Of a DNA stretch of 32,000 bases, positions 589-30,768 are shown piece after piece. A program made the position numbers and the translations under genes. Under the pieces are notes generated by a model. That model searched no databases, had not been told where the DNA came from, and saw only the letters and a list, made by a program, of their open reading frames with translations. The stretch comes from Candidatus Thorarchaeota archaeon (GTDB lineage: Archaea > Asgardarchaeota > Thorarchaeia > Thorarchaeales > Thorarchaeaceae). The DNA lies in assembly GCA_008080745.1 (NCBI GenBank), contig SHMX01000001.1:540001-572000 (forward strand). The letters are read 5' to 3'. Positions within the stretch are counted from its first letter, which is position 1; every line of letters starts with the position of its first letter.

Positions 589-3500
589 ATGAACTCTAGT
601 TGTTCCAAGTATAGTCTTCTATTAGCCGTAGGTATCCTTATGATTCTACCAACAATCTCAACGAATTCCAATACTTTATCGTTGACAACTGATACTTTCG
701 CAAATCCAGCTCGTAATACAATGACTGCTAGCGGAGCACAGTGGCTAGATGGGTTCCCATTCAGAAAAAGTCACATTATTGCTGGATCTTCAGGGGCGGG
801 AGCTAATTATCAAGTTCAGATCGAGATTCATAGTGGAACTGGTATAGATGCGAAAAATCTTGTATACCTACCCTCAGCATATTGGACTGCGGGGGACCCA
901 ATCAGATTTACTGATGATGATGGAGAGACCTTGCTTGATTACTGGTTGGAAACAAGTGAAGCTGAGTCCGCAACCTATTGGGTCGAGATAAAAGATAACT
1001 TGGACGAAAATGTTGAGATATACTTGTACTATGGAAACCCGTCTGCAGGTAGTCTGAGCAATGGAACAGCTACATTTCTATTCTTTGATGACTTCGAGAA
1101 CGGTAATCTGGATCGATGGGATTCAGCAGATTCTGCATGGGGGTGTGTTACCAGTGAGAAGAAGTATGGGTCGTATTCAGGGTATTTTGACCAGACCGCA
1201 TCAGGAAGAATAGATGCAAACCTATCTACATCACAGACAGGTGTCATGATTCATACGTGGTACAGAACGGAGGCACTCAGAGGGGGATCAATACGATTCT
1301 ATGGATCGGAGAATGGCGATACGGAAGCAGCTCGTGTGTACGAACAGAGATGGACCCATTATAACGGTACAAACTACATAGACTATGGTTCTAGAAATAA
1401 AGCAAATAACGAAGACTGGGAGCTGTGTGAAGTGGGAATAAATTTGGATGAGGGGGTAATGATGTTATGGTCCAATAGTACCTTCATTGGAGAAACAACT
1501 GAAATTAAGAATATCACAGGAACCAGTCTCTCAGCATCTGAAGAAATATACAGGATTCGAGTGGATGGACAGACAAATTACCAAGTTTGGCTGGATAACT
1601 ACTATGTTCGCAAATGGATTTCTGAAGAACCACAACACGGAGACTGGAAAGATGGTGCAAATTGGTTAGATGACTTCCCCTATCGAAAGAAACACATGAT
1701 AAATGGAGTGTCAGGAGCTGGGACAAATTACCAGATAAAAATCCGGATTCATAGTGGCACAGGGACCGATACAGGAGATCTTGTGAATATCGACAGTGAC
1801 AAATGGAGTACATCAGACCCAATCAGATTTACAGGAAAAGATGGAGTTACGCTTCTAGATTGCTGGAAAGAATCGAGTAGTGGGAGTTATGCAACATACT
1901 GGGTAGAAATACAGGACAGCTTGGATAACGATATAGCAATCTATGTATATTATGGGAATAATTCAGTCTCAGCCCTAAGTAATGGTTCAGCTACATTTCT
2001 ATCATGGGATGATTTTGATGAGGATTATACAACAGGGGATGCTCCGAAATCAAGAAGAGGGTGGTTTTTGAAAAATAAGGGAACTGGAGATGATGCAGAG
2101 ACCGCCACAGCCCCAGTAGGAGGGTCTGGAGATGCACTCAAATATTACAATGATGGGACAGGAGATCTTCTAAAGATAGGAAATTCATGGGGAACAAATT
2201 ATGATGAGGTTGCAGTTCGTTTCGACTTCTACTATGATACCCAGAGTTATGGTTGGTTATTTGAATTTCTAGCGGGGGTTGGACAATACAATGGATGGAT
2301 CAAATCAGATACAAGCGACTCCTATCAGGTTAGATATGACAACATGAACTTTGTAACGCCAAGCCTAACACTTAGTGCAGATACATGGTATTCCTTTGAG
2401 TTCTATCTGGAGTATAATACAGTCTCATTCAAGGAGAGCTCAACAACCTATTCAGCAGGATACGCAAACACAGCCAACCAAGGAACTGAGAGATTCGAAT
2501 GGGGAACAACTTCTACCAGTGGCCAAGATCTATTCTATTTTGATAATTTCTATGTAAGAAAATATGTCTCTTCTGGAGAACCAACACACGGAGATTGGGG
2601 GGCCGAAGAAAGGAAGGAGGGGCCAGAGAAAGCAGATGGTGCACCGTGGTTAGAGGGTTGGCCATTTAGGAGATATCATAGAATTAATGGCTCAACCGGA
2701 GCAGGAACAGGGTACCAAGTTGAGATTGTGATAAATAGTGGTACAGGAACAGATTCTGGTAATTTACTGAACATACCTAGCTCGGAATGGGTTCCATCAC
2801 TTCCAGTTCGATTCACAGATAATGATGGAACAACACTACTCAATTATTGGAAGGCTTCTGAGAACGATAACAATGCAACATATTGGGTAAAGATTGATGA
2901 CAATCTCGACTACGATACATTGATCTACATATACTATGGAAATTCTTCAAAAGAGAGTCTGAGTAACGGAACTGCAACATTCCTCTTCTTTGATGATTTT
3001 GAGAATGGCAACCTCGATAGGTGGGACTCTGTTGGAGGTAGCTGGGAATGTATCACCAATGAAGTAAAACATGGTAGATTTTCCGCATCCTTTGATCAAA
3101 CTCTGGGAGGATCAATTTCTGCAAATCTATCCTCATTCACAGGGGGGATTATGGTACATTCATGGTACAGAGCTGAGACATACAGAGGTGGGGATTATGT
3201 AGCACAAGCTATCGACTCAGGAGAGCTAAGTGCGGTGAGAGCTCACGAACACCACTGGCGATACTGGGATGGTACTTCGTATGTTGACTATGGATCTGAA
3301 AATGGAGTGACCGCATTGAACTGGGATCGGATCGAAGTAGGTATTGACTTGGCAAGTTATTCGATGAGACTATGGGTGAATGGAACATATATTGGGAGTG
3401 CATCCGAGATCAACAATCTTTCGGGAGAGAATGCATCAATTACAGATATGCTCTATGGACTTCGAATTGCGGGACAGACTAACTATCAACATTGGATGGA

Positions 3501-6500
3501 TGATGTATTTGTTAGAAAATATATCGTTAATGAACCTCATCATGATGATTGGTTAGATGAAGAATCACCAAGTATTGATAGTCCAAGTGATATTGAATAC
3601 AATGAGGGAGATAGTGGGTATGATATCACGTGGAGTCCTAGCGACAGCCATCCAGCAAAATATACAGTATTCAAGAATGAAACAGAAATTCAATCCGGAA
3701 TATGGAATTTGACAACTACATCGATTGCTACCGATGTAGATTCTCTTTCGTGTGGAATCTATAACTTCACCATTCAGGTAATGGATGCAGGAGAAAATAC
3801 GATAAGCGATACAGTATATGTAACCGTGAATGATATCACCGACCCGACCATAGATAATCCAGGAGATATCACATATGATGAGGGAGATACCGGATACTCA
3901 ATTACATGGGATCCATCAGATACCAATCCGTCATCATACGAGATATTTCGAAATGAAAGTAGCATTCGATCTGGTTTGTGGAATACATCAATTGAAACAA
4001 TCTCAATAGATGTCGATGGACTGACATTTGGAACATACAATTTCACTCTAAGTGTAGCAGATATTGCAGGTAACACTGCAACAGACACTGTGTGGGTCAC
4101 CGTAGAAGACGGTCTAAGCCCATCAGTAAGCAATCCTGATGATATCGAATATGGTGAATTCAGTGTAGGGTACAACATTTCATGGGACCCAGAAGACGTA
4201 AATCCAAGTAGTTTTGAAGTATTCAAAAATGGTGTATCAATTGCATCTGGGTCATGGAATGACACCGAAGAAATCATCCAAATAACAGTGGATAATCTCA
4301 CGATAGGAACGTACAACTTCACTCTAATCGTATTTGATATCAGTGGAAAAAATGCAACAGATACTGTGTGGGTCACAGTTATTGATGGAACATCGCCTAC
4401 GCTTGATTCACCAAATAACATCAGCTATCCCGAAGGAGATATTGGAAATAGCATCGAATGGGATCCCGAGGATCAACACCCATACAATTATACAGTTTAT
4501 AGAAACGGTACAGTGATTGCAACAGGATTATGGAATTCAACAAATGAGGTTGTCAATATTTCCATAGACTACTTAGAACAGGGCATATACAATTTCACCA
4601 TTCAAGTAACAGATATCGGAAGCAATACAGCAATCGATCTTGTATGGGTAACAGTTGATGATGAATCACCACCGAGTCTGAATAGTCCCTCAAACAGGTC
4701 AATAGAAGGAGGAGCAGATGATGAGTACGTTTCATGGAATCCAACAGATCTACACCCAACACAATATGAAGTATATATGAACATCACACTGGTATCGTCG
4801 GGAACATGGAACAGTACATCACCAATTCAAGTAGAGATTAATACGACTCTGTTGGGAGTCTTTAACTACACCATCATTGTGTTTGATATTGGACAAAACA
4901 ACAATACCGATACTGTATGGATTACGATAGAGGATACAACAGTTCCAGATATCAACATCCCACCAGCTACCCAATACGAGTCAAATAGTACGGGAAATTC
5001 AATCACATGGATAGCTTCTGACTTGTACCCAGTCTCCTTTGAGTTGTATGTTAACAACGCACTAACAAACTCAAGTATCTGGAATGGTGGAAATATTCAG
5101 ATCAACATTGACGAGCTAGCATTGGGAATCCATAACCATACCCTTGTTGTCTATGATGAAGGGGGTAATAACGCAAGCACAACCGTGTGGGTGACAGTGG
5201 TCGATACTACCGCTCCAACTATTACGCATCCCGAGGATATCGACTACTTCGAAGGGAATACAACAGTACTGCTGAATTGGACTCCAAGTGATGTGAATCC
5301 TGCTCAGTATGAGATCTATAGAAATAATTCACTTATTCAGTCAGGACAATGGAATCAAACAGATGAGATTATCTCCATCAATGTGGGAGGTCTCACCTTA
5401 GGTGTATACAATCTGACCATTGTATGTTATGACGAAGGAGCAAATTATGTTCAAGACATGGTGTATGTATCCGTAGATGACAATACACCACCCATCATCG
5501 ATGAACCATCCGATATTGTTATGGACGAGGGCGATACTGGCAATGATATCCAATGGGATCCAACAGATCTGCATCCCATATCGTATACCATCACTCGTAA
5601 CGGGACAGAAGTAAGGAGCGGGGCATGGAATGATACTGCCGAGACAATCAGTATTTCACTCAATGGTCTGTCATATGGTCAGTATGTATTCATACTAAAT
5701 GTATCAGATATCGGAGGCAATACTGCAACTGACACCGTTCTCGTTAGCATACTTGATGGAACAGCTCCTGAGATTACAAATCCTGATGATATTGAATATG
5801 AGTCAGGTTCTGTCGGGAATCTCATATCATGGTCAGCTACTGATCTACACCCTACAGCATTCTACATCTTTCAGGACACCATACTTGTCAATACATCTCA
5901 ATGGGATGGTTCAGATGTTGAAATCAATGTGGATGGGCTCTCACTTGGAAGTCATAATTATACGATTGTATTCTCAGATATTGGAGGGAATAATGCAAGT
6001 GCCACTGTTTGGGTAACAGTGGTGGATACTACCAATCCAACAGTATCACATCCAGAGGATATTGTATACAGTGAGGGGAATCAGAGTGTATACTTGAATT
6101 GGTCATTATATGACCTCAACCCTCAGAACTACACCATATACAAAAATGGAACACCAATTCAATCAGACTCGTGGATGGCCAGTGACTTGGAGATAGGAGT
6201 GCAAGTGGGTGATCTTGATTATGGTTTGTACAATTTCACCATAATAGCCTTTGACCAAGCCGAATTGAATTCTATAGACATGGTATGGATTACTGTCATT
6301 GATACAACATCGCCAATACTTGATGCTCCAGAGGATATCTACTATGCGGAGGGGGCCACTGGAAATAGTGTTGAATGGAATCCCGATGACCTTCATCCTC
6401 TTTCATATCAATCATATCTCGATAACAGTCCATATGTTGGAGGAACTTGGAACTCTACAACCGAGAATATCAGCATAGATATTGACGGACTCACTCTTGG

Positions 6501-8694
6501 GACATACAATCTGACGTTGGTCATTGTTGATATCGATGGCAATATCGCTTCCGACCAAGTGGATATCTACGTATTCGACAATGAGAATCCATCGGTGGTT
6601 CCAGTGGATGATTTTGTTATGCCTGAAGGCAGTCAGGATTTTGATGTCCAATGGACGCTTCTTGATTTAAATCCAAAGAATTATTCCGTTCTGCTCAATG
6701 GTACAGAATATCAATCAGGCATTTGGAATGAGAGTGCTGAAACAGTTAATATTGGTCTAGATGAATTCAGTATAGGAAACTATAATCTCAGTATTCTAGT
6801 CTTTGATCAAGATGAAAATTCAGCGGTTGATATGGTCATATTTTCAGTCTTCGATGGAACTGCACCAGTAATTCAAGAGCAAGAAGATATGGAGATTGAA
6901 GATGGATCAATTGGCAACTACATTTCTTGGCAACCTTCAGATTTACATCCATTTAGCTATACCATATACATGAACTCAAGCAAATTGATAGAAGGAAGCT
7001 GGAACTCAAGTTCTGATATAATACAAATCCACCTTGATGGCTACCCACTTGGTACATACAACATGACAGTGATTGTACTCGATGTAGGAAACAACAAAGC
7101 ATCTGATGAGGTATGGATATTCGTTGTTGATACCACAAATCCGGTGGCTGGCACTTCTAATCAAGGCTCAAGTATTCAATTCGAGATGAGTAGCACTGGA
7201 AACGTAGTTTCTTGGTCACCAAGTGATCATAATCCTGGAGTGTTTCAAATTCTCGTTAACCAGTCTGTGGTCAAAGAAGGGCTTTGGAATACAACTGGTG
7301 AAACAATTAGTTTTAGTATGGACGAATGGGATCTAGGTCTCTATAATATAACCCTGAAAATAATCGATACTAGTGGAAATAGCGACTCAAGTCAAATACT
7401 GGTAACGATATATGATGGGGTTAGTCCCACGATAAATCAACCAATAGATGTGAGTTTTACATTCGGGAGCAGGGGCTATAGTATTACTTGGACACCTCAT
7501 GATCAAAAACCAGGATATTATTGGATACTAAGAAACGGTACCGAAATTGCTTCTGAGGAATGGCTAGGATCTTCAATAACAGTATCCTTTGATGGACTTG
7601 ATTTAGGAGTATGGAACTACACAATTGTCGTAGAAGATACCTCATCCAATAGAGTCAAAGACACTGTATTTGTTACTGTCTTGTCTTCAAATACATCTAC
7701 TGAAACAGCCACCACAACCACGAGTCTGCAACCCAACCCACTTGATGATGCGGGAGTGATTATGGCAATTGTAGGATCAACATCGTCGATAGGAATAGTT
7801 GGAATAATACTAGGCATCTATATTATTCGGAGAAGACAAAAGAGTAGAGAACTTATTTCCACAGAGAAAAAAGTATCTTCACTTGGCGCAGATGCAATTG
7901 TACAGGTGATGCGAGGAGGAGAATTTGTAGGGAATCGATTCCGTTTTAAAGTGAAAATTCTGAACAAATCACCTCTTGTGATAACTGACATTTCTGTGAC
8001 ACTAGTATCATATCCAAGAGACTCGTTGGTTCTTGAAGGGGAAACAAGCAAGATCATTCCCAAATTGGACCCAGAAGGATTTAGGAGCCCTAGTTTTGAC
8101 CTTCTGCCTACCCAGGACTGTGTTAAGGGTGACCTCATAGCTAGTGTGACCTATGTGGACTCCCGAGGAAGAGCTCATTCAATCATGTCTGAGCCTTTCA
8201 CTATTCGAGCAGTTTGTGACCTATTGAGTCCAGAGGTTATTTCTGTTGAAGAATATATGCTCAAGCTAGCAACCCTAGGTCATGGTGAGATGGCACTAAA
8301 AGTAGAGGATTGGACACCCGAGCAGATGCATGAAAAAACTCTGCAAATTCTTAGAAACTCCAACTTCTTTGAAGTGGATAGTAAGATTGAGCATACTCGA
8401 GCCTATATTGAGTCGAGGATTAAGGGGTGGGCAAAGGGCATCTATACAGGCAAGAATCTAGGAGTAGAGATTGTTATCACTGGTCGAGCGGGTATCAAAG
8501 GCGCAACTTGTAAGGTCACTATGTCCGGAGAAGACAATGCAATGATCATGCCTGCAATCGATGAGATTACAAAGAAACTAGGGGCTTGGCTCTGTCCTAA
8601 ATGTGGAGCTGCATTGCCTTTCGATTCTGTAGAGGTGTTGAAGAAAGGAAAAAGTGTGGCATGCCCATTCTGTGGAGTGACAATGGATAGATAA
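589..8694 (+). CDS. Giant single-pass cell-surface glycoprotein (2701 aa): signal peptide, 3x DUF2341 + ConA/LamG-like units, 15 Ig-like repeats, S/T linker, TM, cytoplasmic adaptin-ear-like domain + Zn ribbon
   Basis: Long uninterrupted ORF. Hydrophobic N-terminus. DUF2341 motif 'IRFTD.DG.TLL.YW.E...ATYWV.I...IY.YYGN' occurs three times. Many N-x-S/T sequons. TM at 7756-7827 followed by RRRQK. CPKC...CPFC at the C-terminus. Confidence 0.95.
   Translation: [2701 protein letters not shown]
742..3558 (+). repeat. Three tandem ~300-aa DUF2341/lectin-like units (starting ~742, 1663, 2647)
   Basis: Each unit starts 'WL(D/E)xxP(F/Y)R..H.I.G..GAG..YQ' and ends 'D..(Y/F)VRK(W/Y)...EP.H.DW'. Confidence 0.85.
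3559..7686 (+). repeat. 15 tandem ~90-92-aa Ig/FN3-like coding repeats
   Basis: Consensus 'P.I..P.DI.Y.EG..G..I.W.P.D.(H/N)P..Y....NG......W......I.I..D.L..G.YN.T..V.D..GN...D.V.VTV.D', counted 15 times in the translation. Confidence 0.9.
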
Positions 8695-8799: not shown

Positions 8800-9390
8800 C
8801 TACAGGACTGCCCCACAGTTCTTGCAGGTCGAGGCAATCCCAGGATTGGCATAGGTACAGTAGGGGCACTCCCGGATGTTCCCCACCTGCTCGAATGACC
8901 GTAGAGAGGACCAATCTTGTCCCTTGATATGGATAACCATATCGGAGGTAGGATCATAGATGCTGATAGTGTAGACTGGTTGATTATTTTTTGTGTAGGC
9001 AACATGACTCTCAATGAACTGGCCAATAGGGCGTCCTGAAAAATGACTCAGTGGTATCTCTTTGAGGATCTTCCCAGCTCTGGTTTCAAGTATTCGCTCT
9101 GTAGTGAGATAGTACCGAGTCTGTCTGGTCCTTATAACATATATGACCAAGAGAGCGATTATAGCTATGAAGGAGACCAGAACAGCCTGTGACAAAACAA
9201 AGCCATACCCAAAGTCTTCTTCAAAAGTGAAGAACAGAATCGGGCCAGTTATGATTATTCCAGCACCGCAACAAATGGCCCAGAAACTAAACCCAGCACG
9301 TCGGGTCCAGACAACCTCTTCGCCCCCAAGTAGTCCTTCCCGATGGGGATCGAATCTATCAGCAGATGAATAAGATCTGAACTCACTCAT
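8800..9390 (-). CDS. Membrane protein: 2 TM + bacterial PH-like domain + C-terminal double Zn ribbon
   Basis: Two hydrophobic segments. 'RYYLTTERILETRAG' is typical of bPH-type domains. CPYC...CKNC at the C-terminus. Confidence 0.75.
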   Translation of the reverse strand: MSEFRSYSSADRFDPHREGLLGGEEVVWTRRAGFSFWAICCGAGIIITGPILFFTFEEDFGYGFVLSQAVLVSFIAIIALLVIYVIRTRQTRYYLTTERILETRAGKILKEIPLSHFSGRPIGQFIESHVAYTKNNQPVYTISIYDPTSDMVIHIKGQDWSSLRSFEQVGNIRECPYCTYANPGIASTCKNCGAVL

Positions 9391-23624: not shown

Positions 23625-26324
23625 CTAATCTTCATCGATATTGCAGGACTGTAACATCATTTGAATGACAGAAGAATGAGTGGACAATATGTCTCGAAGA
23701 CGAACAGATTTTTCCGAATCAATTGTGGAGGGTTCAGTTTCGAGGGAGAGATGATCAGATTGCTTAATTTGTGTTTCCCAAGGTGCTTGCCAAGTTTCAA
23801 GCTCGGAGAAATCAATCGGGTAGATTTGGGCAGCTTCACGTGTCAAATCAATAAGACTACTGAGATTGGTTCGCACCTGAAGAAGCTGTTTCATCAACCA
23901 TGGAATGAGAGTTCTATTTGGAACAGTAGCATACACCCGACTTAATACTTCGATGAGAAGTTCAGCAATTCCTGGTGCAAACGGTAAGGCTAGAACAAAC
24001 CCCATAACATAATCGGGTATCTTTTCCAACAATAATGGATTTGAAAAAAGGTTGTTGAAAAACTCGCGAATAGAGTTCATATCACGCAGACGAACATACC
24101 ATTCAGCAGTCATCAAAAGACCCAGTTTTCGAGGGTCTATCTCATATGTAGGGGCATTAACACTCCTAAGAGCGATAATCAATTGTGACCGGTCACATCC
24201 CATCATAACAGCAAAGTTCTCAAGTGTCAAGGCAAAACTTAGTGACGCCGCAATCTGTTCAGGGGTGGTGCCCCGGTCATCAAAGGTCTGGGGAAGGCTT
24301 GCAGTATAATATGAATATCCCGTTGCAATATAGCTCTTTACCCAGAGGGGAATTCCTCCTGGTGTGGTCTGATAATAATAGACAAGTTCACGAATCAGTC
24401 TGAAGTTTTCGGGCGCATCTTCGATTCCACTGTCATTCATCAGGCGCTCCTCTGCTTTCTTTCCCAGCTCTTCAGAAAAACGAGGACTATCCAAAAGAAG
24501 GATGCTGTCCTTAACTAACTGAAGGACCTCTCCAGACTTGATATCGGTTCTGTTGGCTTTGGTTCTCATGCGTTTGGTTATCACTTGTTCAAGTGATATG
24601 CCCTCATAACCAAGCTGAATCAGTTCAGCTTGATGGTTTCTGAATCGAAGATCCCATGATTCCTGTAGGCGTTCCTTTCCCAATTCGAGTTCACCCATGA
24701 TTGGTTTGACTATTGGAGATGACGGTAAAAGGAACTTTATTCGCCAGAGAACATTAGAACATTGTAGCAAATCAGGATTCTCTCTGAAATCCATGAGAGC
24801 ACGTTGAATCCTCTTCTGGGTGAGATCAACATCTTTCAGCCGACCTAGGACATCATAAACTTCTTTCACGAGTGGGGGAAGAGCAGTATAGCCCACACTT
24901 CCCATGACGTCGAGAGCAATCATTTCTTGACAGAGTTTGAAGATGTCTTTGGTCTTTGGTACATAGTCCTTCTCAAGGCAAGTTACTGCAGCATCCTGAA
25001 AATCATAGAATGTGGGGTGATTTCGTTGTCTCAAATTTGCGAGAAGCTTGGAGGTCTCGAAGATGGCAATAGAGTCAGCAGTGGTTGCTAAATAACCGTG
25101 ATTGCGAGCTAGTGCTACAATCTCCATACAATTTTGAATTAGTTCTCTCTCGTCCTCAGCAAGGAAAGCAGGAGGTTTAGTCAGAAATCCAAGAAGAGCT
25201 TCGTCATCGACGGGTGTGTTGGGTGTGTGGGGATGTTTCTGTGTTTCTTTCTCTTTTCGCTTTAGAGAGAATGGCCTGACACCTGTAGCATTCAATCCTT
25301 TCTTCCATGCACGTTCTGAGATAGAGGCGGTTCCAAGAGGTTGACCGAACTGACGCTCTATCATGGAAAAGCTTACAGGAATCACACCATGTAACCAGTC
25401 AGTATCACTTAACTGTGGGATATCAAACATCTCAGAGCTCTCAACCCCAAACTCGGGAACATCACACACAGTGTGGGCAGCTCCACATATGAAGATGGCC
25501 TCATCGGGTTTGATTCCGTGTTCTTGCATATGTTCTTTGATTCGGGTCCACATGTATCGCTCTCGCCAGCGTGAATCTTTGAGACGATCCATGTTAGTAC
25601 CCAATCTTCTTATGAGACTTCCAATGAGAAACATAATCTGTCGATAGGTCTGATAGTCGCTTCCAAGAACTACTTGGTCTACATACTGATTCCACCATTC
25701 AGAGAAGTGGCGTACGCGAGCGTTTTTGAGAAGAAATGTTACAAATTTTTCAAGAGAGGGTGCCATATCGCCCATCTGAAGCCCAATGGTGGTAGTCAAT
25801 TCCTCATCCTCGGGAGCTTCTTTTGCATTTGTTTGATGATCAGCCCATAAACGCTGGAAGATGTGATCAGTTGAACGATCAATAAAAACAATCTCAACAT
25901 CTTGATTTAGAATCCCAAATGCGATAGCCTGATACTCAGCAGACATCTCAGTAAGGGGAGCTATGACACTCAGAGGGAGTTGAGATGCTGGAAAGGTTCG
26001 TGACCGATTGGCCAATGCTTGAAATGCCACGGGTAATTCACATTCAGTGAGCATAGGAACAAGTTCAATGAGGTCTTCACAGGTCTCAAGATAGATGACC
26101 TTCACAGGTCGACTTCTAAGGCGCTTGATTAATTGGAGAGCAGATGCAGGAGAATGATGAGTTACTGGAAATATTTCAAGAGGTTCGCTCATAGCTCGTT
26201 CTACATCGCTAAGGAGAACATTAAGAATCTCATGGGGCTTCTCACCGGTCTTTCCAAATTCCTTTACGATTGCATCAATTTGTTCCCTCAGAGGTTGATA
26301 ATCGATTTCCATTTTGGTCATCAT
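23625..26324 (-). CDS. DUF5682 family protein (YehM-like)
   Basis: N-terminal 'IFPVTHHSPASA...IYLE', 'RERYM', 'ICGAAH'; long helical C-terminus; adjacent to MoxR and VWA genes. Confidence 0.8.
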   Translation of the reverse strand: MMTKMEIDYQPLREQIDAIVKEFGKTGEKPHEILNVLLSDVERAMSEPLEIFPVTHHSPASALQLIKRLRSRPVKVIYLETCEDLIELVPMLTECELPVAFQALANRSRTFPASQLPLSVIAPLTEMSAEYQAIAFGILNQDVEIVFIDRSTDHIFQRLWADHQTNAKEAPEDEELTTTIGLQMGDMAPSLEKFVTFLLKNARVRHFSEWWNQYVDQVVLGSDYQTYRQIMFLIGSLIRRLGTNMDRLKDSRWRERYMWTRIKEHMQEHGIKPDEAIFICGAAHTVCDVPEFGVESSEMFDIPQLSDTDWLHGVIPVSFSMIERQFGQPLGTASISERAWKKGLNATGVRPFSLKRKEKETQKHPHTPNTPVDDEALLGFLTKPPAFLAEDERELIQNCMEIVALARNHGYLATTADSIAIFETSKLLANLRQRNHPTFYDFQDAAVTCLEKDYVPKTKDIFKLCQEMIALDVMGSVGYTALPPLVKEVYDVLGRLKDVDLTQKRIQRALMDFRENPDLLQCSNVLWRIKFLLPSSPIVKPIMGELELGKERLQESWDLRFRNHQAELIQLGYEGISLEQVITKRMRTKANRTDIKSGEVLQLVKDSILLLDSPRFSEELGKKAEERLMNDSGIEDAPENFRLIRELVYYYQTTPGGIPLWVKSYIATGYSYYTASLPQTFDDRGTTPEQIAASLSFALTLENFAVMMGCDRSQLIIALRSVNAPTYEIDPRKLGLLMTAEWYVRLRDMNSIREFFNNLFSNPLLLEKIPDYVMGFVLALPFAPGIAELLIEVLSRVYATVPNRTLIPWLMKQLLQVRTNLSSLIDLTREAAQIYPIDFSELETWQAPWETQIKQSDHLSLETEPSTIDSEKSVRLRDILSTHSSVIQMMLQSCNIDED

Positions 26325-26345
26325 ACTCCCTCATTTGCTTCAGAG

Positions 26346-27533
26346 TCATATCCGGGTCATAGCATCTTTGCCACCCTTAGCAAAGGAGTCCCAGTCATCA
26401 CCACTTTGTTTTGTCACCACAGCGTGCCAGAACTTGCTAAGTGCAGAAACATCCTCAGGCAATCGTCTTACTAAGGCACCCACTAGAGAACGACCCATTG
26501 TATAACCATCCATCTTACCTTCGCTGAAAAAGGTGCTATACAGAACCGTGTCCTCAATAACACCAATCTGTTCAGCTGTAGACAGAGCAGACTCAATGCG
26601 TTGTTCTTCTGCCCCTTGAGATGCATTATACTTACGAAGATCGTTGAAGGTCTGGATAAGAATCTCTAGAAGCGTAGGAGGAATCTCAACCTTGAACCCA
26701 TGACGGGCCATCAAATCCTTTGTTCTGAATTCGATAATCTCACGTTCGATCTTTTTGCTGGTCACTACAGGAATGTGTATGAAATTGAATCGCCTTTTGA
26801 GAGCTGAAGACATGTCATTCACACCGCGGTCTCTACTGTTTGCCGTGGCTATAACATTGAATCCGGGTTTTGCATACACCATATTACCGATTTCTAGTTC
26901 AGGTATTTTGATGTATTTTTCACTCATAAGAGAGATTAGCGCATCTTGTACATCACTCGTACAGCGAGTCAGTTCCTCAAAACGACCCATACTCCCCTCC
27001 TTCATAGCTACCATGAGAGGCGAGGGAATGAGGGAATCACGCGACTGTCCTTCGGCAATTACCTGTGCAATATTCCAACTGTATTTGATTTGGTCTTCTG
27101 TGGTACCTACAGTGCCCTGTAGAACATTTACGGAATTTCCAGAGATTGCAGCAGCTAATAATTCAGCCAGCCAGCTCTTTCCCGTACCGGGGTCTCCAAT
27201 TAACAATAGCCCTCTATCTGATGCCAAGGTTACTATTGCCCTTTCCACAATGGTATAATCACCATACCATTTTTGTTGAATCTCACGGTCTAACTTGTCA
27301 GATTTCTCGCTGCCAAGAACAAAGATACGAACCATTCGAGGTGATAGCTGCCATGAGAAGGGTTTTGCATCTTCATCCTGCTTCACTAAATATGTCAATT
27401 CCTCTGCGTACTTCATCTCAGCCGGTGCACGTAGCAAGGTTTCGTCGCTATCTTTTGGTTTGCTCTTTTTCGAGGGCGAGGTTTTCGCTTTGGTCTTGGC
27501 TGTTGTCTTTTTTGTTTTCTTTTTTCCAGACAT
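26346..27533 (-). CDS. MoxR-type AAA+ ATPase (AAA_5, YehL-like)
   Basis: Walker A 'GDPGTGKS', Walker B variant 'GRFEELTR', 'TAN', R-finger 'ALKRRF'. GGAGG RBS upstream. Confidence 0.93.
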   Translation of the reverse strand: MSGKKKTKKTTAKTKAKTSPSKKSKPKDSDETLLRAPAEMKYAEELTYLVKQDEDAKPFSWQLSPRMVRIFVLGSEKSDKLDREIQQKWYGDYTIVERAIVTLASDRGLLLIGDPGTGKSWLAELLAAAISGNSVNVLQGTVGTTEDQIKYSWNIAQVIAEGQSRDSLIPSPLMVAMKEGSMGRFEELTRCTSDVQDALISLMSEKYIKIPELEIGNMVYAKPGFNVIATANSRDRGVNDMSSALKRRFNFIHIPVVTSKKIEREIIEFRTKDLMARHGFKVEIPPTLLEILIQTFNDLRKYNASQGAEEQRIESALSTAEQIGVIEDTVLYSTFFSEGKMDGYTMGRSLVGALVRRLPEDVSALSKFWHAVVTKQSGDDWDSFAKGGKDAMTRI

Positions 27534-27549
27534 CCTATTTCCTCCAATA

Positions 27550-28899
27550 TCATGTCACAATTATCTGTTTGAGTTCAGCAATCAGTTTCTTGGGACTGCC
27601 TGAGAGAATCGGATGGCCGATATCCTTCAGACGAACTCGGAACCAAGAATTTACTGAGAAATATCCGGAAGAGGTCATAGCTCCTACCGGAATGAAATTG
27701 ATATCAGAATCAATTATTGATTTGATGTAATCATAAAGTTGGACGTTAGAAGTACCACCTTCATAAAAATCGGTAACAAGAACAATAGCCGTGTCCTTAG
27801 GGTTTGTCACCCGACTGGCTGCCTCAGTCAATGCCGCATAAATGTTAGTTCCACCTCCAAGTTGAGTACGAAGTAGCGCCTCAAAGGGGTCATGCACCCA
27901 AGGAGTCAAGTCTATAATTCGGGTGTCAAAGGCAAGAAGTTCTACTGCAACGTTGGGTACTCCAGCAAAGATGGATGCAAGAATGGAACACTGGACCATA
28001 GAGTCCACCATAGATCCAGATTGGTCAACCACTACAATGATTCGCTTTGGTCGTTTTAGCTTGGCTGTGTGATGATAAAAGAGATGATTGATATACAATT
28101 TCTTGCTCTTTGGGTCATAGTACGGGAGATTTTTCCAAATCGTTCGTCGCAAGTCCAAATTTCTATATACCCGCTTTGGTGGCACGGAATAATCGATTTT
28201 ACCAACAGGTGTCTGAGCCACCATCAATTTCAGAACCTCAGCTAATTCACGAACGAAACGACGTATGATACTCTTTGCATTCTCGAGAGCAACACCTGAA
28301 ATATGAGACTTGTCTCGAAGGAGTTGTTCTACGAGACCCATGGATGGATGCAGCTTTTCTGCAAGTTCTCTATCTTGTAGGATTTCACGCAAGGCCATTC
28401 GTTGTATCATTTGGGTCTCAACAGGTTCAAGAGAGGGGTAGTTCGATTCACTACCACTAGTGCCATGCCCACCACGTAACGAGTCAGGAGGGATATTGAG
28501 TAAAGCAGCTAGGTATTCAACATCTTCGCTCCATTGTTGGAACTGAGATGCCGTAATTGTGGAGGTGTGGGTGTTAGAGCCAAGAGTGTTTGAGAGGGCC
28601 TTGGCCTGGATTAGAAAGACTCTGAGTTGAGTTTCATAATCAAGAGATTCAATTTCTTTTCCGGAGTCTTCTTCGGGAGCTAAAACCAGATTGAATAGTT
28701 CCTGTAATTCAGGATACCTCTGCAGCATAGCTGATATGGATATAGAGGGATTCAGTAAAATCTCAGGTAGATTCAGTTCCTCAAGTATTTGTTTCATGAA
28801 ACTGGAGAATGGGGAGTCATCATCCACCTTGAATGTAGATGACAAAAGATGCCAACATATAATCTGGCGTTTCACTGTAAAGGTTCGTTCATCCATCAT
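27550..28899 (-). CDS. VWA domain protein (VWA_CoxE-like, YehP-like)
   Basis: MIDAS 'VVVDQSGSM', 'GGGT', 'LVTDFYEG'; 'LDLRRTIWKNL' pre-VWA motif. Confidence 0.92.
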   Translation of the reverse strand: MMDERTFTVKRQIICWHLLSSTFKVDDDSPFSSFMKQILEELNLPEILLNPSISISAMLQRYPELQELFNLVLAPEEDSGKEIESLDYETQLRVFLIQAKALSNTLGSNTHTSTITASQFQQWSEDVEYLAALLNIPPDSLRGGHGTSGSESNYPSLEPVETQMIQRMALREILQDRELAEKLHPSMGLVEQLLRDKSHISGVALENAKSIIRRFVRELAEVLKLMVAQTPVGKIDYSVPPKRVYRNLDLRRTIWKNLPYYDPKSKKLYINHLFYHHTAKLKRPKRIIVVVDQSGSMVDSMVQCSILASIFAGVPNVAVELLAFDTRIIDLTPWVHDPFEALLRTQLGGGTNIYAALTEAASRVTNPKDTAIVLVTDFYEGGTSNVQLYDYIKSIIDSDINFIPVGAMTSSGYFSVNSWFRVRLKDIGHPILSGSPKKLIAELKQIIVT

Positions 28900-30287
28900 T
28901 ACTTACTCCTGAGTAATCTACTGGCTCGTTCCTTCAAAATTTTCACAGGGTTGTATCTAGATTTTCCCTCAAACGTGTCGATAAAATTGTACCCAGGGAA
29001 GATAGGCTCTGAGGCTATTTGGTCGGATTTGCCTAATGAGAAGGGCTGAAACCACCAACATGTATTATCATATCGAAATGCACCAAAGATCCATTTTGAC
29101 GTCTTCAGGGTCTTTGTATCAAGTTCCGGAAAGGTACCGGGAATTAACAAAGGAATTGACACTTCACCAATTTTAATGTGAGAAGTACCTGTACCTTTAA
29201 TCTGAAAGGTGTCTGTAAAAATCATCTCAGATACATGAATTGGATGACGATAGAAGGCAGGCAATGTAAGAGGGGTGGAGTTGTTCGTTGGGGATTCTAT
29301 CGAGTAACACGACGACATCATCTCTATCAAGTTAAAGGATTTGCCCGATTTCAAATGAGAATAGGATATTGTAAGATCACCACCCGGTGAGAGTTGACCA
29401 TTCTCAATCTTGAGAGATTGTGCAGATGAGAGTGCGGTAATCAGTGGTTTCAACTCGGGAAATAGAAGCCAGATATGAGATGTATCAATCACATCCACTT
29501 TGAACGAGCTCCGAACTATCCGTACTGAATGTAAATCTTCCTCTGCTTTCAAAAGACCATAAAGTATCACAGAAACAAATTGAGTATGTTGCTGTATTTC
29601 GAGACCTAAGAGAAAAAGGTCACCACTCACAGATTTACAATCAACCTGTATTTTTGGTGACAGTGTCCTCATCATCAATCGACTCCATAGATCAGCCCAT
29701 CGATGCTGAGGAATCATGTCGATATTATGAATAGGTTGGTAATCCATTATCTCGTTGATGAAACCTAGAAGAATAGCATGTGTCTCATTCAGTTCCGGTA
29801 TGGAAACCAACTTCTCAAGAGTGGGTATGAATGGAGTCATTGCATCTGCGCTTAGCCCATCAAATCCTGCTATGGCTATCTCAATAAGCCACTTTTTGAC
29901 TGCGTTCAATATGCCATTTTCGGACCCTTGAGTTTGAAGGGAGGAGAAGGTATCATCTGAAATGATACTAGCTCTTCCAAGAATTGTGGTTAGATAATGC
30001 TGGAGAATCTCATATTGTGCTATCTGCAATGTTGACCGTACCAATGCAATGGTTTCATATGCCTCATCGTTTAGAAGATTTTCATCGAATGCCCTGACTA
30101 ATGCATGAACTCTATTCTGCAGACTTTTGCTAGGAACTGCCTCAGCAAGAGTTCTGAAGATATCGATATCACTGGGTTTTGCATGGCCTGTGCCGACAAG
30201 AAGCAAAGAATCGATGGACTCAATATATGTGTGTAGCTCCTGAAATTGCGTGGGAATCTCACTAAGATGTTCTAAGGTTGCATCCAT
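28899..30287 (-). CDS. Hypothetical protein (462 aa), part of the MoxR/VWA operon
   Basis: Long ORF; its TAA overlaps the VWA ATG by 1 nt at 28899; contains 'RWADLWSR'. Confidence 0.85.
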   Translation of the reverse strand: MDATLEHLSEIPTQFQELHTYIESIDSLLLVGTGHAKPSDIDIFRTLAEAVPSKSLQNRVHALVRAFDENLLNDEAYETIALVRSTLQIAQYEILQHYLTTILGRASIISDDTFSSLQTQGSENGILNAVKKWLIEIAIAGFDGLSADAMTPFIPTLEKLVSIPELNETHAILLGFINEIMDYQPIHNIDMIPQHRWADLWSRLMMRTLSPKIQVDCKSVSGDLFLLGLEIQQHTQFVSVILYGLLKAEEDLHSVRIVRSSFKVDVIDTSHIWLLFPELKPLITALSSAQSLKIENGQLSPGGDLTISYSHLKSGKSFNLIEMMSSCYSIESPTNNSTPLTLPAFYRHPIHVSEMIFTDTFQIKGTGTSHIKIGEVSIPLLIPGTFPELDTKTLKTSKWIFGAFRYDNTCWWFQPFSLGKSDQIASEPIFPGYNFIDTFEGKSRYNPVKILKERASRLLRSK

Positions 30288-30297
30288 GTGAATCCCT

Positions 30298-30768
30298 CTA
30301 GAAGAACCAGGCCATCTCTGGAATATATTCGTTCACAGACTCAACCTCAAGATAGCGAAGATAACCCAAGAACCTGCTGAAGACTTCACTTATGGATTCC
30401 TTTACTTCTGACCCGTGAAGTAGAGCCAGTATATTTCTTGCAGACTTGACCGATTCAGGATTAGTAGGTAATTTGAGATATTCTGCAACCTTCTTTGCAC
30501 CAAACTGTTTGACTGCCTCTTCAAGTAACCATCTTAGATGTTTACAATAAGTACCCCGTAACCCACCACACCTTCTGTTGTTGTTTGTACTGCAATAGTA
30601 ATCATGAGAATTTGCCTTTATGAAAGCTAGGTACACCCTTTCCTTGCTCGATCCTGACGATACCACTCCCTGCAATCGCCCATCATGCAGTTCGACAAAG
30701 GGAACATTATTGACTTTTCGTTTGTCGATTTTTGTTTCTCTATCAGAACCTTGTGTTAGAAATGACAT
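30298..30768 (-). CDS. SWIM-like Zn-finger protein (156 aa), first gene of the operon
   Basis: 'GVVSSGS...VY...YYCSTNNNRRCGGLRGTYCKHL'. GAGGTGA RBS upstream. Confidence 0.75.
   Translation of the reverse strand: MSFLTQGSDRETKIDKRKVNNVPFVELHDGRLQGVVSSGSSKERVYLAFIKANSHDYYCSTNNNRRCGGLRGTYCKHLRWLLEEAVKQFGAKKVAEYLKLPTNPESVKSARNILALLHGSEVKESISEVFSRFLGYLRYLEVESVNEYIPEMAWFF

Follow-up and report, generated by a model that had tools for sequence, protein, structure and literature searches.

A giant surface-protein gene fills positions 589 to 8694 of the 32,000-nucleotide (nt) stretch of Candidatus Thorarchaeota DNA analysed here (the window). The last 265 residues of its product are strongly predicted to form an immunoglobulin (Ig)-like sandwich and a TBP-like platform that pack against each other in the order and mutual orientation found in the appendages ("ears") of eukaryotic adaptor and COPI subunits, with a four-cysteine (C4) zinc ribbon as a cap. 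That the tail has an adaptin/COPI-appendage-like fold and is homologous to these appendages is, taken together, very probable, as judged from the structural model and the searches made with it. Comparison of its relatives indicates that ear and ribbon belong to a mobile module, found on many unrelated membrane proteins.

Structure of the tail and its resemblance to eukaryotic ears

The tail was modelled with AlphaFold2 (AF2) on an alignment of 117 module sequences from family representatives (A1), and strands and helices were assigned by DSSP; the number of a model residue is its amino-acid (aa) number minus 2429. Coordinates are window positions, and aa numbers are those of the product of the open reading frame (ORF) 589-8694, whose parts are the following:

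589..8694, + strand: whole gene, a single open frame of 2701 aa
aa 5-23, + strand: N-terminal hydrophobic signal-like segment (Kyte-Doolittle scan)
ectodomain of ORF 589-8694, + strand: three DUF2341 units, with a jelly-roll (lectin/CBM-like) segment after each (Pfam; language model)
ectodomain of ORF 589-8694, + strand: about 15 Ig-like (PKD/HYR-type) repeats (Pfam)
7756..7827 = aa 2390-2413, + strand: single transmembrane helix (hydropathy peak 2.25 at aa 2390-2408)
7828..7896 = aa 2414-2436, + strand: short basic linker from membrane to module, not part of the conserved profile (start at aa 2437)
7897..8220 = aa 2437-2544, + strand: Ig-like beta-sandwich subdomain, nine strands, model residues 9-112 (AF2/DSSP)
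8221..8583 = aa 2545-2665, + strand: platform subdomain, TBP-like/helix-grip alpha/beta (AF2/DSSP)
8584..8691 = aa 2666-2701, + strand: C-terminal C4 zinc ribbon, CPKC 2669/2672 and CPFC 2692/2695

The model has a mean predicted local distance difference test score (pLDDT) of 93.8 and a predicted template modelling score (pTM) of 0.78, with values of pLDDT below 50 for model residues 1-5, in the linker. In model numbering, the platform consists of a helix (124-131), a strand (135-143), a helix (148-161), four strands (165-218) and a helix (221-236), in this order. The beta segment, the alpha/beta segment and the CPKC/CPFC ribbon, which a first-pass annotation of this DNA had placed after the transmembrane helix, coincide with the blocks assigned by AF2 and DSSP. 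The two CxxC knuckles of the ribbon are about 20 residues apart, as in C4 zinc ribbons, and the four cysteines are invariant in every aligned homologue that has the region (68% of the A1 rows); Pfam zinc-ribbon matches to the end of the tail are all sub-threshold. Three columns of the alignment are invariant (N2459, P2507 and G2514) and 23 are conserved at 90% or more. The first platform helix carries a conserved aromatic residue, which is F in 83% of the rows and Y2556 in the present protein.

When the model was compared with the Protein Data Bank (PDB) using Foldseek, the top block of matches consisted of appendages only, each aligned over about 235-250 columns that cover both subdomains. 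The best match is the COPI leaf chain 9qpq_H (E 2e-11, template modelling score 0.63/0.70), and the block also holds the AP-2 alpha ears 2vj0, 1w80 and 1b9k (E 2.5e-11 to 3e-10), the beta2 ear 1e42 and the gamma-COP ears 1pzd and 1r4x. In an exhaustive alignment to 48,161 representative PDB chains, performed with a method other than Foldseek, appendages occupy ranks 1-5. Among the AlphaFold models of Swiss-Prot, the 30 best matches are all C-terminal appendages (COPI beta/gamma, AP-3 delta/beta, AP-1 beta and TPLATE). A language-model look-up, which is to be taken as a lead only, gave eukaryotic appendage clusters (0.75-0.78) after the archaeal clusters of the family itself. The tail therefore shares with the ears an N-terminal Ig-like sandwich and a C-terminal platform, in the same order and with the same packing of both, and the structure searches agree with the first-pass reading of an ear-like sandwich and platform that a receptor-like protein bears in the cytoplasm. 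The outcome named there as fatal to that reading, a fold lacking the sandwich and platform or best matches to unrelated Ig/CARDB domains only, was looked for by structure search and did not occur. Identity within the structural alignments is 8-12% for the PDB chains and 10-17% for the Swiss-Prot models. Scans of the tail with Pfam and NCBIfam gave no significant name, and phmmer of the tail against the PDB sequences returned no adaptin/COPI chain.

A CARDB-type or arrestin-type identity of the beta block was considered and rejected, given that the two-domain appendage match ranks above every single-domain match. The matches to beta-arrestin (E 0.16), TRAPPC13_C (E 0.17) and the Sec23/24 zinc finger (E 0.08) are below significance and were given no weight. 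The four pairings with alpha-adaptin that had been made by eye fall on sandwich strands 2-3, on the junction and the first platform helix, on the central platform strands, and on the last strand and helix. They match the correct structural elements and follow their succession along the chain; the pairing of single residues within these elements is only putative.

The protein that carries this tail is strongly predicted from its sequence to be a type-I surface protein. The transmembrane helix is preceded by an ectodomain of about 2,360 aa, in which DUF2341 is matched over three stretches of the 2701-aa protein (E 3e-46) and Ig-like families include K319L-like_PKD (6.5e-27), TcfC E-set, Big_13 and others; the look-alikes of aa 165-365 in the language-model look-up are jelly rolls of the CBM/lectin type, again a lead only. 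The remainder, aa 2414-2701, amounts to 288 residues (nt 7828-8691, plus the stop). The sequence RRRQKSR directly follows the transmembrane helix, and 7 of the 15 residues there are K or R. Sequons of the N-x-S/T type number 74 in the ectodomain (3.1 per 100 aa) versus one in the tail. These positive residues and the asymmetry of the sequons, together with the four-cysteine ribbon and the occurrence of the module in proteins that have no transmembrane segment, indicate that the C-terminal tail is most probably cytoplasmic.

Carriers, copies and distribution of the module

A search of the tail against 1.84 billion cluster representatives retrieved at least 440 at E<=1e-3, with 132 of these at E<=1e-30, and nearly all of them align across the whole of tail residues ~25-286. 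Numbers of this size put the conservation of the module, as a unit of sequence, far beyond chance.

Its carriers were surveyed in the 150 best of the 440 representatives by a simple hydropathy scan, which is crude and leaves a few weak segments doubtful. Transmembrane segments lie upstream of the module in 108 of the 143 representatives with a complete module (~75%), and these comprise 37 polytopic proteins, 44 single-pass proteins with long outer parts and 27 short membrane anchors. Between the last transmembrane segment and the module, the median spacing is 62 aa. The parts N-terminal to the module match 175 Pfam families over 117 proteins, with a predominance of extracellular types (SBBP, PQQ and LVIVD propellers, beta-helices, PKD/Big, LRR and TSP3). 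The carriers comprise dozens of unrelated ectodomains as well as polytopic membrane proteins and soluble proteins. The zinc ribbon is found in 97 of the 150 top representatives, about a third being without it. In one ribbonless subfamily (P0105, P0118, P0129, P0134, P0137, P0139, P0140 and P0146) the module is followed by a C-terminal extension of ~120-140 aa with a hydrophobic segment at the very C-terminus; most members also have a transmembrane segment upstream, and in these the module would lie between two membrane anchors.

The remaining 35 of the 143 have no transmembrane segment. P0041 is a soluble protein in which the module is fused to an E3-UFM1-ligase-like winged-helix region, while P0125 (780 aa; L018 419-2761) has an EAP30/ESCRT-II region directly downstream of the module and P0132 (705 aa; L019 2181-4298) has HEAT repeats directly upstream of it (HEAT_2, E 7.7e-29); the latter two are sisters on the module tree. 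The order of solenoid and ear in P0132 is an arrangement that Eme et al. 2023 did not find in Asgard genomes with Pfam models. TPR arrays are fused to the module in P0112 and P0150, and other fusions in this group involve WD40 and LRR domains. In P0138 and P0121, two metagenomic relatives, a beta-propeller with matches to BBS2_Mid (33.5 bits, above the cut-off) and of the BBS7-propeller-like type precedes an ear-like module, and this domain order is that of the BBSome subunits BBS2/7/9. P0107 (783 aa, metagenomic) combines a propeller, a TIR domain (TIR_2, E 4e-15), an ear-like module and a ribbon, which, unexpectedly, brings a domain of the immune or NADase type together with an ear.

On a module tree built with FastTree, which has no root, membrane and soluble carriers are interspersed, with 19 changes between the two, at least eight of which are forced by well-supported branches. 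The present tail falls in a clade with 100% support that is made up of 21 membrane tails and two E3-UFM1-like proteins (P0041 and P0043) and that looks like a lineage-specific expansion. Within this clade, the tails are 47-71% identical to the present one, whereas the ectodomains have a local identity of 30-45% or none. Given that the carriers are interspersed on the tree and that the tails are conserved while the ectodomains diverge, the module is, on this sequence comparison, a mobile and strongly constrained unit that has been shuffled repeatedly, and its commonest use in two Asgard lineages is that of an inner tail of unrelated membrane proteins. The fusion of a receptor to an ear, which had been singled out at first as special, loses this standing with a module so promiscuous, which the genome holds in at least six copies and which has switched between membrane and soluble carriers at least eight times.

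The family profile was also run against 300 genomes in a survey of about 30 families of the phylum. It is positive in 71 of the 76 genomes of the taxonomic family to which the window belongs, in 64/68, 5/5 and 6/7 genomes of three further families, and in isolated single genomes of four more (1/1, 1/4, 1/6 and 1/1); the remaining Asgard families searched gave no member, for example in 0/28, 0/21 and 0/19 genomes. The module occurs mainly in Thorarchaeota and Lokiarchaeia-type genomes, the nearest clusters in the language-model look-up belong to Thorarchaeota and Promethearchaeota, and the nearest relatives of the tail come from metagenome-assembled genomes of Candidatus Thorarchaeota. Tandem arrays of members with 350-500 aa are present in many Thorarchaeal genomes, and soluble proteins with two modules in tandem are present in nearly all of those searched.

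The genome from which the window comes contains the module at least six times, in differing architectures. On contig 6, a further surface protein with Ig repeats has a copy with 57% identity, a soluble 760-aa protein on contig 4 (L003 31-2313) has two tandem modules of ear and ribbon, and a soluble 762-aa protein on contig 3 (L004 1471-3759, - strand) carries a single module behind an array of zinc-ribbon units. A protein of 420 aa has a helical N-terminal part followed by a module without a ribbon. Since the top-scoring module matches of many Thorarchaeal genomes fall in open frames of 759-780 aa, soluble proteins of this size, including the 760- and 762-aa paralogues, appear to be conserved core members of the family. 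One fragment lies within the window itself:

10762..10977, + strand: orphan 71-aa ORF (six-frame match 10732-10974, E 1.7e-25)

It retains the final platform strand, the final helix and the zinc ribbon of a module, with 53% identity to tail residues 208-288, but nothing that lies upstream of these, and is probably a relic of another tail-bearing or truncated paralogous gene, or a displaced copy of the gene end.

Possible roles of the tail and its genomic context

Eukaryotic ears, such as the AP-2 and COPI appendages, act as hubs to which accessory proteins attach by short peptide motifs, with motif pockets at a platform site around a conserved Trp and at a site on the side of the sandwich. Because eukaryotic ears are hubs, because relatives of the module are fused to ESCRT-II-like, HEAT, TPR or propeller parts, and because an association of such regions with ESCRT loci has been published, the tail may serve as a docking hub, a function that we put forward tentatively and hold to be a little short of probable. 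In this scheme, an extracellular target would be bound by the ectodomain, through its DUF2341/jelly-roll units and Ig-like repeats, and the link of the surface protein to the cytoplasmic machinery would fall to the ear. The tail would then be a fixed docking platform that brings many membrane proteins of different kinds to a single soluble partner or machine shared by all of them. This shared machine would act in the sorting, clustering, turnover or budding of membrane proteins; it may possibly be the ESCRT-linked machinery that the literature ties to archaeal appendage regions (PMC10936438). The full explanation, in which a cytoplasmic ear and ribbon form a mobile Asgard module that acts as a shared docking platform, is the one that we prefer, and we consider it modestly probable.

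Several observations weigh against it. The docking partner of the tail is only hypothetical, and the structure of the tail is a predicted one. No Pfam appendage model is matched by the tail above its cut-off (PF02883, PF02296, PF09066, PF08752 and relatives); the best such match is to GAE_BBS1 (E 0.02, 15.6 bits versus a cut-off of 27), and no other reaches E<=1. In a search of the whole genome, the best match to PF02883 (E 0.14) lies at another place and PF09066 has none, and the hidden Markov model of the family retrieved no adaptin/COPI chain from the PDB sequences. The present copy, moreover, has Ile at aa 2618, a near-invariant platform position occupied by Lys in 92% of the family, so that positions 8425-8442 (aa 2613-2618) read GWAKGI versus the family consensus G-x-A-x-G-K-Y. 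As for genomic context, no ESCRT, SPFH or GTPase gene adjoins the giant gene in the 32-kb window, and the ESCRT-III/II genes of the genome lie at 433.8-436.9 kb of contig 1, versus 540.6-548.7 kb for the giant gene, which places them ~110 kb apart. For the family as a whole, an ESCRT context is found in part, through P0125 with its EAP30 region. The VPS28 model PF03997 has no match in this genome nor in the control genomes, so this result is not evidence of absence.

The tail could, alternatively, serve in anchoring or clustering, tying surface proteins by ear and ribbon to a scaffold beneath the membrane or to each other, through self-association or through proteins with tandem ears, and fixing their position, for example on protrusions or under a surface layer, instead of sorting them. 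The presence of the same tail on many surface proteins fits this role. The soluble tandem-module proteins of nearly all Thorarchaeal genomes searched could also mean that modules act in pairs, as TBP-like domains often do. Nonetheless, transporter-like polytopic proteins, which make up 37 of the 143 carriers, would be odd clients for a positional anchor, and the fusions to ESCRT-II-like, HEAT and TPR parts point to sorting machinery. No evidence of self-association was obtained; the prediction of a two-copy complex of the module, made with its alignment, scored 0.00 and speaks neither way. Overall, we regard anchoring as rather unlikely.

A signalling output is less likely still. In this case, a ligand on the ectodomain would alter the tail, and the ribbon or platform would bind a regulator or nucleic acid, making the protein a one-component transmembrane receptor. 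The layout of ectodomain, single transmembrane helix and conserved cytoplasmic domain is receptor-like, one relative (P0107) has a TIR domain, and zinc ribbons can bind nucleic acids. However, a third of the family is without the ribbon, the module also follows polytopic membrane proteins and occurs in soluble scaffolds, and structure comparisons of the tail model gave no enzyme or DNA-binding fold. We attach a similarly low probability to convergence, that is, to a generic Ig sandwich beside a helix-grip domain that resembles an ear without kinship, in which case nothing could be transferred from the adaptors; the silence of the Pfam appendage models bears on this alternative, as does the match of both subdomains, in order and packing, to appendages before anything else.

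The idea that the fusion is the relic of an ancestral single polypeptide of cargo receptor and adaptor ear, later split in eukaryotes, is very improbable: the fusion does exist and is common in two Asgard lineages, but the carriers are interspersed on a tree that offers no root or polarity, most of the other Asgard families searched yielded no member of the module family, and the tight clade of the present tail has the look of a lineage-specific expansion. The one-polypeptide precursor of receptor-adaptor coupling that the first-pass annotation had envisaged is not borne out, and the family gives no evidence of an evolutionary course leading to the adaptors of eukaryotes, given that the module is shuffled and that its best-conserved Thorarchaeal copies (759-780 aa) are apparently soluble.

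The shared docking platform that we prefer could be carried one step further, to a "cis-adaptor", although this extension seems to us unlikely as it stands. Archaea of the Thorarchaeota and Lokiarchaeia type would mark varied single-pass and polytopic membrane proteins with a built-in ear, so that the cargo carries its own recruiting hub, a logic that, to our knowledge, has not been described for eukaryotes. If true, this would imply regulated sorting of membrane proteins or their targeting to vesicles or protrusions in these archaea, and the relatives that join HEAT repeats or a propeller to an ear would represent a soluble version, built much like true adaptor or BBSome subunits.

The neighbours of the giant gene are a small membrane/zinc-ribbon protein, a methyltransferase, a histidine-kinase-like ATPase and a TPR protein. 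For the TPR gene, 4 kb away, a functional link to the tail had been suspected, and nothing beyond proximity speaks for it. The small membrane protein is encoded directly 3' of the giant gene, and a cluster with two further ORFs lies towards the other end of the window:

8800-9390, - strand: convergent 196-aa ORF with two hydrophobic segments and a C-terminal CPYC...CKNC zinc ribbon, no Pfam match
23625-28899, - strand: three-gene cluster of DUF5682 (899 aa), a MoxR-like AAA_5 ATPase (395 aa) and a VWA CoxE-like protein (449 aa)
28899-30768, - strand: two ORFs of 462 and 156 aa, on the same strand after the DUF5682/MoxR/VWA cluster, no Pfam match

The loci of close relatives (L009, L013 and L014), compared by ORF lengths, have no obviously conserved gene order. 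The DNA was found in two marine-sediment DNA runs, which are possibly the source of this assembly, and no RNA run is listed among the sequencing runs that contain it.

Significance and comparison with known systems

Ears serve clathrin-adaptor and COPI coats as interaction hubs, and the origin of such coats is an open question of eukaryogenesis. In Asgard archaea, the ear domain was previously known mainly from soluble, ESCRT-associated multidomain proteins. What is added here is that its most frequent setting in two lineages is that of a conserved cytoplasmic tail on unrelated membrane proteins, that relatives with HEAT or propeller N-terminal parts exist, and that published Pfam-based surveys undercount this family, because it escapes the models used there. 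The finding is no demonstration of vesicle coats in these organisms; it provides, nonetheless, one conserved bait of 265 residues that is common to many carriers and has homologues in Lokiarchaeia-type genomes, and this may give a handle on the sorting of membrane proteins in Asgard archaea.

The kind of protein is already known, given that archaeal and Asgard ears, a fusion to GOLD linked by a transmembrane segment and fusions to zinc ribbons have all been published, and most of the novelty first attributed to the present fusion is gone (PMC10936438; 10.1101/2020.10.19.343400; PMC10307638). In the literature searched, no mention was found of ear and ribbon as a general C-terminal tail of type-I or polytopic membrane proteins, of the abundance of the module in Thorarchaeota or of its invisibility to Pfam models.

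The closest known structures are the AP/COPI ears (COPI beta/gamma-COP; AP-2 alpha/beta2, AP-3 delta/beta, AP-4 beta; TPLATE; BBSome GAE and platform). In the heterotetrameric adaptors, these ears come last, after a HEAT/alpha-solenoid trunk and a flexible hinge, whereas the present module has neither trunk nor hinge, lies 23 residues below the transmembrane helix of a surface protein and bears an additional C4 zinc ribbon. HEAT repeats upstream of the ear, as in AP/COPI, are found in some soluble relatives, namely P0132.

An archaeal "adaptin appendage region" formed by IG and TBP folds, in proteins of ESCRT neighbourhoods, has been described by Makarova et al. (2024, mBio, PMC10936438; arCOG15284), who assigned the appendage domain to the last archaeal common ancestor and reported Asgard appendage regions fused to Vps28-C, longin, TPR and IG-like domains. 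The published examples include the Methanosalsum proteins WP_013898578.1 and WP_013898571.1; one Methanosalsum appendage is joined via a transmembrane linker to a GOLD domain of the cargo-receptor type and another has a zinc ribbon (PMC10936438). The present tail is likewise a pair of IG-like and TBP-like domains that resembles the adaptin/COPI appendages, the likeness being one of fold and architecture. In the GOLD protein, however, the appendage is N-terminal (residues 1-220) and GOLD C-terminal, whereas here the ectodomain comes first and ear and ribbon are C-terminal, and the present gene lies outside any ESCRT/SPFH neighbourhood.

According to the accessible portion of Liu et al. (2021; 10.1101/2020.10.19.343400), some Asgard proteins fuse Vps28/Vps23 with the "C-terminal domains of adaptin and COPI subunits" and an E3 UFM1 ligase. 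The two nearest soluble relatives of the present tail (P0041 and P0043) carry a similar E3_UFM1_ligase-like region, but the proteins described in that portion are soluble, with no ectodomain or transmembrane segment, and a use as a membrane tail is not mentioned in it. Finally, standalone Alpha_adaptinC2 and B2-adapt-app_C domains were reported by Eme et al. (2023, PMC10307638) in sparse Asgard genomes, none of them downstream of Adaptin_N. The present module is, like these, an Asgard pair of ear-type subdomains off any Adaptin_N trunk. The domains of Eme et al. are sparse and were found by Pfam models, whereas the present family escapes those models and is abundant in the taxonomic family of the window.

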